Shown here piece after piece: positions 13,996 through 23,396 of a stretch of 64,000 nt of DNA. A program made the position numbers and the translations under genes. The notes below the pieces were generated by a model. It ran no database searches and was not told the origin of the DNA. It saw only the letters and a program-made list of their open reading frames with translations. The number at the start of each line of letters is the position of its first letter. The first letter of the stretch is position 1. The stretch lies in the NCBI RefSeq assembly GCF_029227855.1, contig NZ_CP074356.1; one strand, given 5' to 3'. The DNA comes from Escherichia coli. Its GTDB lineage: Bacteria > Pseudomonadota > Gammaproteobacteria > Enterobacterales > Enterobacteriaceae.

Positions 13996-14950
13996 ATCCT
14001 TTCCAGTCTAACGTGACAGGTTCGCCGTCACGAATAAAACAAAGCCCTTCGATATCGGCGGTCATTTGCCCGATACAGGTAAACGGTACGCCCAGATGTC
14101 CGAGAGCCACATCCAGCGCGCCACGGTTCAGTTCCGGCACCGTGAAACACAACTCGTAATCTTCACCGCCAGAGAGCGCCCAGCGCAGCGCCTGTTCCGG
14201 TTCAACATGGCGAGAAAGCGCATCAGAAAACGGCAGCAATGCCAGGTCAATACGTGCGCCGCAGTCGCTGGCTTTCACGATATGCCCGAGATCGGAAATC
14301 AGACCGTCAGAGAGATCGATAGCTGAATTTGCCAGATCGCGCAGTGCCTGTCCCTGTAAAATACGCGGAGATGGACGGAGATGACGTTTGATCAAGTAGT
14401 CCGCATCTTTAACATCGGCAACCTGCAAACGGTTTTGCAAAATCGCCAGCCCGGCGGCGCTATCGCCCGGTGTACCGGTCACATAGATCCAGTCACCCGG
14501 TTTCGCCCCAGCGCGCGTTAAGGCTCGTCCCATCGGAACAAAGCCGTGGATACCCAGCGTCATTGATAATGGCCCACGCGTGGTATCGCCGCCAATGAGT
14601 TGCATATCGTAATAATTGAGAAGATCAAACAAACTGTCGCTGAAGGACTCAAGCCACGCTTCGTCGACGTCCGGTAAGGTTAATGCCAGCGTCAGCCAGG
14701 CTGGATCGGCCCCCATCGCTGCCAGATCGCTTAGGTTCACCGCCAGTGCTTTATACGCCAGATCAGCAGGATCGATATCAGGGAGGAAGTGGTTGCCCGC
14801 CACCAGCGTATCAGTGCTGATCGCCAGGGTCTGTTTCTCGGGGATATTGAGAAGTGCGCAATCGTCGCCAATGCCCAGTTCGACATCAAGACGAGAACTT
14901 CTTACACGGTCAAAATAACGGGCAATCAGGGAGAACTCGCCACATGCCAT
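13973..14950 (-). CDS. thiL: thiamine-monophosphate kinase
   Basis: 325-aa ORF, AIR-synthase-related fold, nusB-thiL-pgpA context. Confidence 0.95.
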
Positions 14951-15027
14951 ACGTTATGCCTCAGCAGGTAAAAAAGAAAAGGCCGGCGATCGCGGAACGG
15001 TCTTCCGTGAATCTACCGGCCTGGATA

Positions 15028-15447
15028 TCACTTTTTGTTAGGGCGAATCACAGGTGCTGCTTTATCGAGTACGCCGTTGACGAACTTATGGCTGTCTTCT
15101 GCGCCGAACGATTTCGCCAGTTCGATCGCTTCGTTAATGGCCACTTTGTATGGCACATCGCTACGTTTAGACAGCTCATACAGCGCAATGCGCAGTACTG
15201 CTTTTTCTACCTGGCCCAGTTCTTCCAGCAGGCGGGACAGGTATGGCTTCATCAGTCCGTCGAGGTATGCGGTGTTAGTCGCCACCCCGGCCAGCAGCTC
15301 ACGGAAGTACAGGACGTCAACGTCTTTTACATCCTGTTCAGCCAGGAACTGGTATTCAACATCAGCGATGTCGTTCTGGGACAACTGCCAGGAGTAGAGC
15401 GCCTGGACGGCACACTCACGAGCGCGGCGACGAGCAGCAGGTTTCAC
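15028..15447 (-). CDS. nusB: transcription antitermination factor NusB
   Basis: 139-aa ORF recognised as NusB. Confidence 0.95.
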
Positions 15448-15466
15448 GGATTTCCCCTTACTAATT

Positions 15467-15937
15467 TCAGGCCTTGATGGCTTTCAATACATTAATCATT
15501 TCAAGCGCGGTCAGTGCAGCTTCTGCACCTTTGTTGCCAGCTTTGGTGCCAGCACGTTCGATCGCTTGTTCAATGCTTTCAGTGGTCAGAACCCCAAAAG
15601 CAACCGGAATTTCGCTGTCCTGGGCAACATGCGCCAGGCCGTTGCTTGCACCACCAGCGACATATTCAAAGTGGGCAGTGCCACCACGAATAACCGTACC
15701 CAGCGCAATCACCGCGTCGTATTTACCGGTTTTAGCCAGTGCACCCGCCGCCAGCGGCAGCTCATAGGCACCAGGCACCCAAACAACGGTAATGTTTTCA
15801 TCTTTTACCTGACCGATACGTTTCAGTGCGTCAATTGCACCTTCCAGCAGGCTGTCATTGATAAAGTTGTTGAAACGCGCGATGGTGATGGCGACGCGAG
15901 CGTCCGGGGTAGCAACGTTAGCTTCAATAATGTTCAT
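15467..15937 (-). CDS. ribH: 6,7-dimethyl-8-ribityllumazine synthase
   Basis: 156-aa product starting [23 protein letters not shown]; the track ORF is extended upstream. Confidence 0.95.
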
Positions 15938-16025
15938 TTTCTTCCTTCGGGTTCGAGTATGGCCCCGCAGGGGGGCGGATTTTAGCATAATATTTCGTGC
16001 GCTGCTTCCCTTTCGAGCCGGGAGA

Positions 16026-17905: not shown

Positions 17906-19114
17906 TCAGGCTGTCGCCTGAATCATTTCGGTGGGTTCCTGCTTCAACGGGCGGCCTGACTGCACCATCTCTCCACAGGCAAGAACGGCGTGCCCCGCCG
18001 CTAAAATGTTACGAGCGCCATTTACATCGGCGTTCGCTGTATATCCACATACCTGGCATCTGAATTGACTTTGTGACAGGCGATTTTCTTTCGCTGTATG
18101 ACCACAGCACGCGCAACGCTGACTTGTGTACGCTGGCGGAACAGCAAGCACCTGACCGCCACTCCAGAGCTGCTTGTACTCAAGCTGGCGGCGCATTTCA
18201 TACCAGCCCTGATCCAGTATCGAACGGTTTAAACCTGATTTTGCCCGGACATTGCGCCCCGGCTGGCTGACCGTACCCGCTGCTGACTTTGACATGTTAC
18301 TGACCTTCAAATCCTCAATGACTATCATTGCGTGGTTTTTGCTGACGGTCGTTGTGACTTTATGAAGGTAGTCCCTGCGGATATTTGCGATACAGGAATG
18401 CAGTCGCTGTATTTTGCGTTTCTGCTTCTGCCAGTTGTTGCTGAATTTGACCTTGCGGCTTAACTGTCGCTGAAGTCTCGCCAGCTTCTTCTGGTTTTTC
18501 TGAAAACTGTTTACAGGCTCAAAGACTGTGCCATCTGACAGCGTGGCGAGTTTAGCCACGCCAGCATCCAGCCCGACCATTGATGCTGAAGGGTGAACCG
18601 GAGTTGATACTTCACTTTCTGTCTGAATACTGATGTACCACTTACCGCAGGACTGGCAGACCGTGACATTTTTCACAACACCCGTGACCTGACGGCTATT
18701 CCGGTAGCGCATCCAGCCAAGTTTCGGCAGAAAAATACGGCTGTTTTCCTGATCGAGCTTAACGCCCTGCGGGTAGCGGAATGCATCATTCTGTCCCCGC
18801 TTTTTGAATCGGGGAAAAGCAGCCCGCTTCCGGAAGAAGTTTTTGTAAACCCGCTCAAGGTCTTTCAGTGACTGTTGCAATGGCTGTGAGGGCGAATCTT
18901 TAAGCCATTGCGTTTCAGTGGCGTTTTTCCACTCAACCAGCCAGGAAGCCATTTTCCCGTAAGGGATGTATTTATTACCGGCCTCATGATTCTCATTCTG
19001 AAGCGCCAGAGCACGATTGAAAACGAAACGACATGCGCCTGCGAAGCGCCTCATTTCACGCTCCTGTTGACCACCGGGTCTTAACTGGAATTTAAATGCC
19101 TGTAGTCGTTTCAC
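17906..19114 (-). CDS. tnpB: TnpB (IS605 OrfB-family RNA-guided endonuclease), apparently intact
   Basis: 402 aa, GTG start; RuvC-like motifs [18 protein letters not shown] and [10 protein letters not shown] plus zinc finger CACCGH...CQVCG. Confidence 0.9.
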
Positions 19115-19121
19115 AGGCCAA

Positions 19122-19600
19122 ATGATACTTTGGTCTGTGAAAAAAGAAACCGATATCCGGCGTGGAAGGCATTGTGTTTTCCTGATGCATGTTCACCTGG
19201 TCTTTGTCCCAAATACCGACGCCAGATTTTTGACCATGACGCGACAGAAAAACCACGCACTTACTTTTCAGATGTATGTGCTGATTTTGAAGCTGAACTG
19301 GTTGAAATGGATGGCGAACCAGATCACGTCCATTTGTTAATTAACTATCCTCCCAAACTGGCGATATCCAGTCTGGTAAACAGCCTCAAAGGCGTATCGG
19401 GTAGGTGACTGCGACGAGATCGACCAGATATTGCAGTCAGGTATTACTACAAAGGCGTTTTGTGGAGTCCTGGCTATTTTGCCAGTAGCTGCGGAGGTGC
19501 GCCAATATCCGTCATCCGCCAATACATTGAACAACAGCAAACACCTGGTCAGGTGGAAAACCGCGCCTTATATCCCCGCCCTGAAGGACGGGGTTTTACG
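19122..19600 (+). pseudogene. tnpA: IS605-type tnpA (Y1 HuH transposase) remnant, disrupted by a frameshift and an in-frame stop
   Basis: HuH motif and downstream conserved region (HVHLLINYPPK...SLKGVSGR, then WSPGYFASSCG) split over reading frames with a TGA at 19406-19408. Confidence 0.6.
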
Positions 19601-19614
19601 GCGCACCGGATAAA

Positions 19615-20019
19615 GAAACAGTCAAAATCACTCAGCAAAACAGGCTGAATGCAAAATCCAGCAGTGGGGTTTACCTTCTGCCTGGAGCGAAAACACCAGC
19701 AAGACTGGAAAGCCAGATCGGTACTTTACGTATGTCGCTGGTGAATATTACGCCTGATACAGATGGCACCACCCTGACGCTACGTATTCAGGGCGAGTCG
19801 AATGATCCCTTGCCCGCATTCAGCGGAACTGTTGAATATGGGCAAATTCAGGGAACAATAGACAACTTTCAGGAAATCAATGTGCAGAATCAATTGATTA
19901 ACGCCCCTGCCAGCGTCCTCGCCCCCAGCGATGTTGATATTCCGTTACAGTTAAAGGGTATTTCTGTGGATCAGTTAGGCTTTGTACGTATCCACGACAT
20001 TCAACCTGTTATGCAGTAA
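19615..20019 (+). pseudogene. yajI: 3' fragment of yajI
   Basis: In-frame translation ETVKITQQNRLNAKSSSGVYLLPGAK...IHDIQPVMQ matches the C-terminal part of YajI. Confidence 0.8.
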
Positions 20020-20316: not shown

Positions 20317-21201
20317 ATGAAAAAAACATTACTGGCAGCCGGTGCGGTACTGGCGCTCTCTTCGTCTTTTACTGTCAACGCAGCTGAAAACGACAAACCG
20401 CAGTATCTTTCCGACTGGTGGCACCAGAGCGTTAACGTTGTCGGAAGCTATCACACCCGTTTCGGACCGCAGATCCGCAACGATACCTACCTTGAGTACG
20501 AAGCATTCGCTAAAAAAGACTGGTTCGACTTCTATGGTTATGCGGATGCGCCGGTATTCTTCGGCGGTAACTCCGATGCAAAAGGTATCTGGAACCACGG
20601 TTCTCCGCTGTTTATGGAAATCGAACCACGTTTCTCCATCGACAAGCTGACCAATACTGACCTTAGCTTTGGTCCGTTCAAAGAGTGGTACTTCGCGAAC
20701 AACTACATTTACGACATGGGTCGTAATAAAGATGGTCGCCAGAGCACCTGGTACATGGGTCTGGGTACCGATATCGATACTGGCCTGCCGATGAGCCTGT
20801 CCATGAACGTCTATGCGAAATACCAGTGGCAGAACTATGGCGCAGCGAATGAAAACGAGTGGGACGGTTACCGTTTCAAAATTAAATACTTTGTGCCGAT
20901 TACCGATCTGTGGGGCGGTCAGCTGAGCTACATCGGCTTCACCAACTTCGACTGGGGTTCCGATTTAGGGGATGACAGCGGTAATGCAATAAACGGTATT
21001 AAGACCCGTACCAATAACTCCATCGCTTCCAGCCATATTCTGGCTCTGAACTACGATCACTGGCACTACTCTGTCGTAGCTCGTTACTGGCACGACGGTG
21101 GTCAGTGGAACGACGATGCAGAACTGAACTTCGGCAACGGCAACTTCAACGTTCGCTCTACCGGCTGGGGTGGTTACCTGGTAGTAGGTTACAACTTCTA
21201 A
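20317..21201 (+). CDS. tsx: nucleoside-specific outer membrane channel Tsx
   Basis: 294-aa product starting [22 protein letters not shown] (signal peptide), C-terminal ...GYLVVGYNF; the track ORF is extended upstream. Confidence 0.95.
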
Positions 21202-21211
21202 TTGTGAGAAT

Positions 21212-21237
21212 GCCGGATTTCATATCCGGCATTTTTT
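21212..21237. terminator. hairpin GCCGGAT-TTCAT-ATCCGGC followed by TTTTTT, bidirectional terminator between convergent tsx and yajD
   Basis: Read directly from the sequence, 10 bp after the tsx stop. Confidence 0.65.
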
Positions 21238-21238
21238 A

Positions 21239-21586
21239 TCACTTCTTCTTGTTCATCATCGCTTTCAGGTCAGCGAATGGGTTGTACTTCGCTTCACCGA
21301 CATCTTTCTGCGCATCTTCCCCTGCGATAACGGTCGTACCATACTGATCTGCTTCGGTATATTTTGAATGCTCGTGATCGTGGCAATAAAGACACAATAA
21401 CTCCCAGTTACTGCCGTCTTCCGGGTTATTGGTATGGTCGTGATCAATGTGGTGAACGGTAAGTTCACGCAGGTTGGAATAAACAAACTCGCGAGAACAG
21501 CGACCGCAGACCCACGGATAGATTTTTAATGCTTTTTCGCGATAGCCGCTTTCTAAGCGCGCATAGTTTTTGGGGATGATAGCCAT
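21239..21586 (-). CDS. yajD: HNH nuclease family protein YajD
   Basis: 115-aa ORF with HNH-like Cys/His cluster (CGRC...HHIDHDH...CLYCHDHEH). Confidence 0.9.
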   Translation of the reverse strand: MAIIPKNYARLESGYREKALKIYPWVCGRCSREFVYSNLRELTVHHIDHDHTNNPEDGSNWELLCLYCHDHEHSKYTEADQYGTTVIAGEDAQKDVGEAKYNPFADLKAMMNKKK

Positions 21587-21771
21587 GAAAAGTTACCTGG
21601 ATGAAATGTAGGGTTACGCGCAGTTTCCCAAGATGCGGAGATTTTCGCAATCTCCATACATCAATAAATATCCTCCGGCATAGCCGGAGGTTTTTCAAAT
21701 GCGCCTATAAGGCTCTCTTACCAGCCGCGCCCTAACAGGCGCACACGATCTGACATTTGCATCCAACTTCG

Positions 21772-22230
21772 TTACTTACGGCCCGTAAACGGGCTGCCCG
21801 GATAGGGAATCGATAACTGCTCTCCCATTTTATCCTCTTCAAGCTGGTGCTTTATGTAATCCTGTATCTTCGCCGTGTTCTTACCCACTGTATCGACGTA
21901 GTACCCTCTGCACCAGAACTCCCTGTTCCTGTATTTGAATTTCAAATCACCAAACTGCTCGTAAAGCATCAGACTGCTTTTCCCTTTCAGATATCCCATA
22001 AACCCGGATACGCTCATTTTAGGCGGGATCTCCACAAGCATATGGATATGATCTGCACAGCATTCAGCTTCCAGAATCCGTACGCTTTTCCACTCACACA
22101 GCTTTCTCAAAATACTGCCTATTGCTCTACGCTTCTCTCTGTAGAACACCTGTCTTCGGTATTTTGGCGCAAAAACTATGTGATATTTACAGTTCCATCG
22201 GGTGTGCGCTAAGCTCTTTTCGTTCCCCAT
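21772..22230 (-). CDS. tnpA: IS200 transposase TnpA (Y1 HuH tyrosine transposase)
   Basis: Product MGNEKSLAHTRWNCKYHIVFAPKYRRQVF...HIHMLVEIPPK...RGYYVDTVG recognised as near-identical to IS200 TnpA. Confidence 0.9.
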   Translation of the reverse strand: MGNEKSLAHTRWNCKYHIVFAPKYRRQVFYREKRRAIGSILRKLCEWKSVRILEAECCADHIHMLVEIPPKMSVSGFMGYLKGKSSLMLYEQFGDLKFKYRNREFWCRGYYVDTVGKNTAKIQDYIKHQLEEDKMGEQLSIPYPGSPFTGRK

Positions 22231-22234
22231 TGGG

Positions 22235-22306
22235 ACCCCCTTTTGATTTCTTGTTTGACACTTGCAGTTGCCAGACCGCAAGGTGTTTTAACAAATCAAA
22301 AGGGGT
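22235..22306 (-). promoter_or_regulatory. IS200 5' UTR stem-loop that sequesters the tnpA ribosome-binding site
   Basis: Inverted repeat arms at 22235-22255 and 22290-22306; the arm next to the start codon contains the Shine-Dalgarno AAGGGGG. Confidence 0.55.
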
Positions 22307-22373
22307 TTTAATAACTGGCTCAAAGCTGAAAGCTTTCCGGAACCCCCTGCCTAGCTGGGGGTTTTCTGTGCAC

Positions 22374-22402
22374 AAAAAAATCCCGATCTTCTGACCGGGA
22401 TT
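22374..22402 (-). terminator. rho-independent terminator (stem TCCCGATC/GACCGGGA flanked by A7 and T4), 22 bp downstream of secF; may be the IS200 left-end terminator
   Basis: Hairpin followed by a 7-nt U-run on the minus strand. Confidence 0.6.
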
Positions 22403-22424
22403 TTCAACATCAACGGGAACTTGA

Positions 22425-23396
22425 TTACGGCAGAATTGACGGCTGATCCGCCCCTTCTTTTTCCACTTTCTGCTGCAGCATGTGTTCGCGCTTCATACCC
22501 AGTTTCAGAGCCAGCGCCGATGCCACATAGATGGAAGATGCAGTACCGATGGAAACACCGATAAGCATGGTCAGCGAGAAGCCTTCCAGTACCGGACCAC
22601 CGAAGAGGTACAGCATCAGGATAACCATCAAGGTAGTACCGGATGTGATCAAGGTACGGTGCAGCGTCTGGGTCAAGGACACGTTAAAGATTTCGTAAGG
22701 CGTACCGCGACGGATCTTGCGGAAGTTTTCGCGAATACGGTCTGATACCACGATACTGTCGTTAAGCGAGTAACCGATAACCGACATCAACGATGCCACA
22801 ATGGTCAGGTCAATCTCGATATGGAATAACGACAAAATACCCAGCGTAATGATAACGTCGTGCGCCAGCGCAATAACAACCCCTGCCGCCAGTCGCCACT
22901 CAAAGCGGAAACCTACGTACACGAGGATAGATAGCAGCGCCGCCATCAACGCCATCGCACCGGTTTGCGCAAGGTCTGCCCCCACGCTCGGACCGACGAA
23001 CTCAATACGCTTCACTGCCGCATTCTGATTGGTGGATTCGTTAATCACCTTCAGAACCTGGCTGCCCAGCACCTGACCGCCGGTTTCGCCTTCAGCAGGC
23101 GGCATACGGACCATGATGTCGTGGCTGCTACCAAAGTTTTGCAGCATCGGCTCTTCAAAACCGGCTTTTTGCAATGCATCACGCATTACGTCAATTTCAG
23201 CCGGTTTTTCGAGCGTAATTTCGATAACCGTACCACCGGTGAAATCCAGCCCCCAGTTAAAGCCGCGCACGCCCATAATAACGATAGCGGCGATTAACAG
23301 CAGACCAGAGATGCCAAAAGCCCAGTAGTCCCAGCGCATAAAGTCATAGACTTTACGGCCGTGGTTTAGTTGTTCAACAGTATATTCCTGTGCCAC
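22425..23396 (-). CDS. secF: protein translocase subunit SecF
   Basis: 323-aa product from a GTG start at 23396 (RBS GAGGAG upstream); the track ORF is extended upstream. Confidence 0.93.

Follow-up and report, generated by a model that had tools for sequence, protein, structure and literature searches.

An IS200C element in the secF-yajD gap

The minus strand of the window (the whole 64-kb stretch of E. coli DNA analyzed here) almost certainly carries an intact, full-length IS200C at positions 21665-22374, in the gap between secF and yajD. This is a tnpA-only element of the IS200 group in the IS200/IS605 family. IS200C is the E. coli variant of IS200, and the secF-yajD copy is an ordinary one that is already catalogued in public genomes. 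No observation made here speaks against this identity. No second IS200C copy was found when the 64-kb window was searched. The features of the element and its flank are as follows, with the evidence for each in parentheses.

21665-22374, minus strand: IS200C insertion sequence, 710 bp (empty-site alignment, full-length other copies, flanks of ten copies)
22364-22374, minus strand: left-end tip, TGTGCACAGAA (read from the sequence)
22341-22363, minus strand: left-end subterminal hairpin, IS nt 12-34 (Rfam match, fold, repeat search, PMC4513863)
22237-22305, minus strand: predicted stem-loop that hides the Shine-Dalgarno (SD) sequence, IS nt 70-138 (RNA fold, repeat search, Rfam; nt 69-138 in PMC4513863)
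22235-22242, minus strand: SD sequence, AAGGGGGU (the AUG at 22230 follows after 4 nt; SD also quoted in PMC4513863)
22222-22311, plus strand: putative art200 antisense-RNA region (positioned from the description in PMC4513863)
21772-22230, minus strand: tnpA, 152-aa Y1/HUH transposase (Pfam, NCBIfam, PDB alignment, RefSeq WP_000526135.1)
21700-21743, minus strand: a further inverted repeat, in the 3' region of tnpA (arms at 21700-21712 and 21731-21743)
21672-21690, minus strand: right-end subterminal hairpin, CCTCCGGCTATGCCGGAGG, then ATATTTA (repeat search, fold z = -4.7, other copies)
22375-22404, minus strand: host secF intrinsic terminator, in the flank and outside the IS (hairpin 22377-22404 including A/T extensions; its T-tract is the insertion point)

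The tnpA ORF (21772-22230, minus strand) encodes 152 aa plus a stop codon, and the protein begins MGNEKSLAHTRWNCKYH. Over its full length, TnpA matches the Pfam family Y1_Tnp (PF01797) with an E-value of 3.8e-38 (130.7 bits), and it scores 147.7 bits against the NCBIfam IS200 equivalog transpos_IS200 (NF033573), whose cutoff is 55. The ORF and both scores bear out the 152-aa IS200 TnpA gene that a preliminary description of the sequence had placed at these positions. The protein is homologous to the solved IS200-family structures 2ec2, 2f4f, 2a6m, 2vjv, and 2xm3, which represent Sulfolobus, IS608 of H. pylori, and ISDra2 of D. radiodurans (E-values of 4e-23 to 1e-14). Residues H61-I-H63, Y125, and Q129 were assigned by alignment, with DHIH and Y..xQ lining up in 2ec2/2f4f. 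This is the only family-matching ORF (152 aa) of the 710-bp element, which thus carries tnpA without tnpB. A RefSeq locus 100% identical over 1.3 kb labels the gene "IS200/IS605-like element IS200C family transposase" (WP_000526135.1), and this protein is also found at unrelated sites in other genomes. The name IS200C reflects an identity of 98-100% over positions 1-709 to the elements that RefSeq labels IS200C.

TnpA also presented a weak match to the NCBIfam model REP_Tyr_transpos (E-value of 8.5e-08), as would be seen if the gene were a domesticated REP-associated tyrosine transposase (RAYT). We rejected this identity, which has virtually no chance of being correct, based on the family scores and on presence/absence polymorphism: TnpA reaches 32.2 bits with NF047646 against a cutoff of 80 (147.7 versus 55 for the IS200 equivalog), and the gene is part of a discrete 710-bp block that is present or absent as a unit and occurs at many sites in many copies.

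The flanking ORFs encode YajD, which has an HNH domain, and SecF, and the gene order at the 100%-identical RefSeq locus is tsx, yajD, tnpA, secF, secD, yajC, tgt. The secF hairpin and seven Ts are kept upstream of the IS, and 78 bp upstream of yajD are kept downstream of it. We infer that the insertion disrupts no gene and leaves the 78 bp before yajD untouched, and read-through from secF would meet the left-end terminator of the IS. The clean intergenic insertion anticipated in the preliminary description is therefore confirmed, with yajD, secF, and the secF terminator hairpin all intact.

Two other insertions were observed in this region. At 17906-19408 of the window, an IS605-type element interrupts yajI: it comprises a 402-aa TnpB/InsQ ORF (17906-19114, minus strand) and, beside it, a decayed tnpA ORF (19130-19408) that is frameshifted with an internal stop according to RefSeq, and the remaining yajI fragment spans approximately 19609-20019. 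In O157:H7 F8952 and STEC1575, the secF-yajD spacer contains a ParD/ParE-RelE toxin-antitoxin pair in place of IS200C. The presence of this pair in some STEC indicates that the short secF-yajD spacer accepts different insertions.

Boundaries of the element

To set the ends of the element, we compared it with empty sites, three in all, and with ten other copies. The spacing between yajD and secF is 838 bp in the window and 128 bp in the empty site, which corresponds to 710 inserted bp and agrees with the earlier estimate of about 0.84 kb containing roughly 0.7 kb of IS. On the secF-sense strand, the empty site of strain DH1 reads ...CGGGATTTTTTTTGATGTATGGAG..., and the window reads ...CGGGATTTTTTT / GTGCACAGAAAACCCCC ... 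GGAGGATATTTA / TTGATGTATGGAG..., where slashes mark the junctions. Other IS200C copies match positions 1-709 of the element end to end with 98-100% identity, which defines a 709-bp core at 21665-22373, and the unrelated flanks of ten other copies start exactly at the limits of this core. The length of 710 bp is the sum of the 709-bp core and one ambiguous T, and the limits 21664-22373 are equally possible. With nt 1 set at 22374, the left-end hairpin spans nt 12-34 and the SD stem-loop spans nt 70-138. We report the IS as 21665-22374 because the empty sites, the other copies, and the published IS200 landmarks agree.

The insertion point lies in the secF intrinsic terminator, within its T8 tract; all three empty sites examined (DH1 and two more) have this tract, and the junctions are T7 / 709-bp core / TT. 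A clear target duplication is absent from this site, where the T8 homopolymer became T7 / core / TT. With a homopolymer as the target, these junctions are compatible with a 1-bp duplication, and the insertion would be duplication-free if one T belongs to the IS; the published numbering of IS200 implies that one T does. Most same-site genomes present TTT after the right end (152 versus 151 nt in the junction query), and TT is found in the window (21663-21664), JNEC-KY178, and GMF054. The homopolymer length thus varies among sister genomes and empty sites, and the single-base ambiguity of the T stays.

These boundaries differ from the interval 21690-22405 of the preliminary description, both ends of which lie approximately 25-31 bp too far right. 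Based on the empty-site comparison, that interval drops the right-end hairpin (21672-21690) and takes in the secF terminator hairpin (22377-22404). The hairpin at 22377-22404 is assigned to the host secF terminator because it is present in the empty sites, and the hairpin at 21672-21690 (CCTCCGGCATAGCCGGAGG) is assigned to the right end of the IS because it is in every IS copy and missing from the empty sites. The correction matters for annotation, since the excluded hairpin is the right end of the IS and the included one is the surviving terminator of secF. The comparison with the empty secF-yajD site, which had been proposed as a check, defined the ends and recovered a 710-bp block, which has subterminal hairpins at both ends.

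Subterminal hairpins

Subterminal hairpins occupy both ends of the element on the same strand (22341-22363 and 21672-21690), and the repeat search reported no terminal inverted repeats between the two IS ends. The right-end hairpin was seen in every other IS200C copy compared and is missing from the empty sites. Inspection of the sequence shows that the two hairpins (AACCCCCAGCTAGGCAGGGGGTT at the left end, AACCTCCGGCTATGCCGGAGGAT at the right end) have 17 of 23 bases in common and that their pairs differ in a compensatory manner, as anticipated for hairpins bound by a single protein. By analogy with the family, the left-end hairpin would be a hairpin bound by TnpA. In published IS200, it acts as a bidirectional terminator against outside transcription (PMC4513863). 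The right-end hairpin looks terminator-like for tnpA, which would end there, followed by ATATTTATT.

The last bases of the left-end tip, immediately 5' of the hairpin foot, are A-rich, complementary to a T-run, and by analogy with IS608 constitute a candidate guide to the target. The end of this tip (...AGAA) is conserved as ...GAA across IS200-group subtypes. The left-end stem itself contains one A.A mismatch (22348 / 22356; GGCAGGGGG), whereas most copies present an A-T pair. This mismatch was found in the window copy, in all same-site copies examined, and in the mcbR-pqqU copy (one of the ten other E. coli copies). The remaining E. coli copies and all 121 matches listed from other taxa present the perfect stem GGCTGGGGG.

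Leader and predicted control of tnpA

The leader of tnpA contains inverted-repeat arms at 22237-22252 and 22290-22305 that are 94% complementary in the repeat search, very close to the arms 22235-22255 and 22290-22306 first noticed in the sequence. In the predicted minimum free energy fold of the RNA, the lower stem pairs 22237-22249 with 22293-22305 and takes up AAGGGG of the SD sequence AAGGGGGU, which accounts for six of its eight bases. For the first 160 nt of the IS, the fold energy is -55.4 kcal/mol (z = -3.2). Moreover, the Rfam family STnc490 (RF01405) matches 22240-22363 on the minus strand over its full length (1-124) with 141.3 bits against a gathering score of 56, and the leader of the window copy is almost identical to its consensus. 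The predicted fold and the STnc490 match (141 bits) therefore agree with the earlier proposal that the arms pair across the SD.

It has been shown experimentally in Salmonella IS200 that the structure at nt 69-138 blocks the binding of the 30S subunit (Ellis et al. 2015, PMC4513863). In this element, repression is also exerted independently by the antisense RNA art200 and by Hfq, and the published landmarks are nt 12-34 for the left hairpin and nt 69-138 for the SD stem-loop (PMC4513863). The leader of the window copy probably has the same regulatory functions, judging from its identity to Salmonella IS200. By extension from that element, several layers would hold the expression of tnpA very low: incoming transcription would end at the left-end hairpin (nt 12-34), the tnpA promoter near nt 40 would be weak, the stem-loop at nt 70-138 would hide the SD sequence AAGGGGGU from 30S subunits, and the antisense RNA art200 and Hfq would add to the repression.

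The plus strand of the art200 region folds with z = -5.1, and the complementary region is fully conserved. By eye, a possible but weak plus-strand promoter lies upstream of this region, with TTTACA (22187-22192) and TAAGCT (22210-22215) separated by a 17-nt spacer. A consensus promoter scan of 21500-22500 detected no sigma-70-like site at threshold for either tnpA or art200, which is consistent with IS200 promoters having been published as "weak or unrecognisable".

The Rfam model STnc490 matches the tnpA-sense strand, from the left-end hairpin through the SD stem (22240-22363). STnc490/art200 has been described as a 90-nt antisense transcript (Ellis et al., PMC4513863); in its present form, the Rfam model seems to correspond to the leader region and not to art200. 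Other candidate RNAs were rejected as generic resemblances to terminator hairpins: Ysr202 at 21632-21695 (28 bits against a gathering score of 315), and SorX and AaHKsRNA41 at approximately 21174-21238, both far under the Rfam threshold.

Orientation and model of transposition

Around the element, the plus strand has a negative GC skew, as it does in six of seven overlapping 16-kb segments; the sole positive value, a marginal one, is that of the first segment (1-16000, +0.003). This makes the minus strand the G-rich strand and, consequently, the tnpA-sense top strand the lagging-strand template. Elements of the IS200/IS605 family are biased toward the lagging-strand template, which is favored by their single-strand "peel and paste" transposition (PMC5027513), and the orientation of the window copy agrees with this family model. 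Following the paradigm of IS608 and ISDra2, TnpA, once made, would bind both hairpins on the single-stranded top (tnpA-sense) strand and excise this strand as a circle, which would then be pasted next to a short T-rich target, on its 3' side, in the lagging-strand template.

Distribution in E. coli and state of the copy

Copies covering at least 80% of the element were found in 2063 of 5426 complete E. coli genomes (38%), with up to 35 matches per genome. IS200C is thus not rare in E. coli, and the earlier view that IS200 occurs in only some E. coli lineages understates how widespread it is. The secF-yajD insertion itself is found in about 98-99 of the 5426 genomes (~2%), one of which is labelled O102:H6, a type that may point to ST405. 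Among the 60 listed genomes with this insertion, nearly all have 12-35 matches per chromosome, mostly 17-30, whereas the median among all genomes with any IS200C match is 1. The insertion can thus serve, as the preliminary description anticipated, as a marker of a particular background, i.e., of a lineage that is high-copy in nearly all listed genomes. The single secF-yajD copy matters little otherwise and is useful mainly as such a marker. The low-copy genome GMF054 (3 matches genome-wide) also has the secF-yajD insertion, which may represent an independent insertion into the same secF terminator.

We considered it improbable that the window copy is a dead relic, a complete-looking but immobile copy (e.g., owing to the A.A mismatch) that persists as a neutral lineage marker. 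IS200 has been described as mostly dormant (PMC4513863), and the approximately 98 genomes that share the insertion suggest an old vertical inheritance. Nearly all listed carriers have 12-35 matches each, however, and such numbers speak for the family having been active recently in this lineage. The ORF is also intact, its protein is identical to the one found at many different sites, and both ends of the element are complete. As for the mismatch in the left-end stem, which is shared by the window copy and one of the ten other E. coli copies, IS608-type hairpins tolerate imperfections.

Placement of IS200-group elements after terminators

The position of the window copy after the secF terminator is part of a broader pattern. 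At the nine distinct E. coli IS200C sites, all nine left ends follow a GC-rich hairpin and a T-run, and the right end is then followed by TT. The base before the left end was a T in 10 of 10 E. coli flanks. We scanned species-representative genomes for the 23-nt left-end hairpin and found at least 120 loci in other taxa, including Y. pestis (IS1541), Vibrio, Brenneria, Dickeya, Edwardsiella, Pluralibacter, and several gut MAGs. Flank statistics were computed on the 116 unique non-tandem flanks among the matches listed. The base before the left end was a T in 114 of these 116 flanks and usually belonged to a T-run. A hairpin with at least four Ts in the last 8 nt was found in 100 of the 116 listed flanks versus 109 of 3000 random positions from the same loci. 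Finally, in 83% of the listed cases the hairpin's G:C foot lay 6-9 nt from the IS core, and this distance matches the right end of the element itself, which consists of the hairpin foot and ATATTTA(T).

Some copies of IS1541 in Y. pestis are arranged in tandem. The second copy starts 1-2 nt past the right end of the first (hairpin + ATATTTA), with the two left-end matches 710 bp apart, as if this right end were itself a target. The identical 23-nt left-end hairpin was also found in MAGs assigned to Oxalobacter, Mailhella/Desulfovibrio, Bacillota, Peptococcaceae, Elusimicrobia, and Saccharibacteria. These matches frequently lie at the ends of contigs, and their 11-nt left-end tips vary from group to group. 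Such a spread may reflect wide horizontal transfer or binning artefacts.

It is possible, and we put this forward tentatively, that the transposases of the IS200 group actively choose a terminator-shaped single-stranded DNA target, with a GC-rich hairpin and a T-run ending 6-9 nt further on. Such a target may mimic the right end of the element and, in addition, pair with the A-rich nucleotides found at the left-end hairpin's foot. By analogy with the guide/target rule of IS608, pairing of these A-rich bases with the T-run could explain the requirement for a T. We know of no demonstration of targeting by right-end mimicry. If true, the position of the window copy at the secF terminator would be mechanistically determined, beyond mere tolerance.

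Purifying selection alone is a similarly tentative explanation of this placement: any T-rich site would be hit, only harmless insertions would survive, and the shape of the terminator would not be recognized. Intergenic spots after terminators are among the least harmful places of a genome, and a simple T-rich target could explain the T-ending flanks (114 of the 116 listed). T-richness, however, does not account for the hairpins, which were present at 92% of the 116 listed left flanks but at only 22.5% of equally T-rich random positions from the same loci; these control positions include coding DNA, which leaves room for selection. The tight distance of 6-9 nt between the hairpin foot and the IS in 83% of the listed cases also argues against selection only. 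The same is true of the tandem IS1541 copies inserted 1-2 nt after the right-end hairpin of another copy, where selection on host genes is irrelevant.

Terminator-like sequences have been reported as strongly over-represented just upstream of IS200/IS605 elements, and this enrichment was read as a way to limit transposase expression (2025-26 preprint, 10.1101/2025.07.22.666184). The post-terminator pattern is therefore not new and has been at least partly described. In the literature that we found, this preprint is the only work that addresses terminator-like sequences upstream of IS200/IS605, and a search of full-text literature on the target choice of IS200/IS1541 returned no experimental target-site study. 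The pattern bears on how safe landing sites are chosen by the smallest autonomous IS and on why IS200-group elements so rarely disrupt genes.

Comparison with known elements

IS200 of Salmonella enterica, reportedly the subject of work by Lam and Roth and by Beuzon and Casadesus, shares with the window copy a single 152-aa tnpA, a left hairpin at nt 12-34, an SD stem-loop at approximately nt 69-138, and the SD sequence AAGGGGGU. Established through Rfam and the published landmarks, this likeness has its limits: the window copy is 710 rather than 707 bp long, represents the E. coli variant IS200C, and has one A.A mismatch. The other E. coli copies of IS200C present a 709-bp core that is 98-100% identical and an identical TnpA (WP_000526135.1), and their flanks show the same pattern, a hairpin and T-run leading into the left end and TT beyond the right end, such that only the site differs.

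Outside of E. coli, IS1541 of Yersinia pestis/pseudotuberculosis has the same 23-nt left-end hairpin as IS200C, the same right-end hairpin followed by ATATTTA, and the same placement after terminators. In contrast to IS200C, its left-end tip is TGTGCCCAGAA instead of TGTGCACAGAA, and some of its copies are in tandem. IS1541 was found in dozens of copies in the one Y. pestis assembly sampled, and an average of 39.8 copies per genome has been reported for Yersinia (PMC4513863).

The more distant IS608 (H. pylori) and ISDra2 (D. radiodurans) encode a homologous Y1/HUH TnpA (E-values of 4e-19 and 2e-16 with solved structures). Like IS200C, they possess subterminal hairpins in place of inverted repeats, insert 3' of a short specific sequence, and have a top strand that is the lagging-strand template. 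The lack of target duplication is a trait of IS608 and ISDra2, and IS200C presents no clear duplication at its homopolymer target. IS608 and ISDra2 also carry tnpB and target TTAC or TTGAT, whereas IS200C carries tnpA alone and appears to target a T-run that follows a hairpin.
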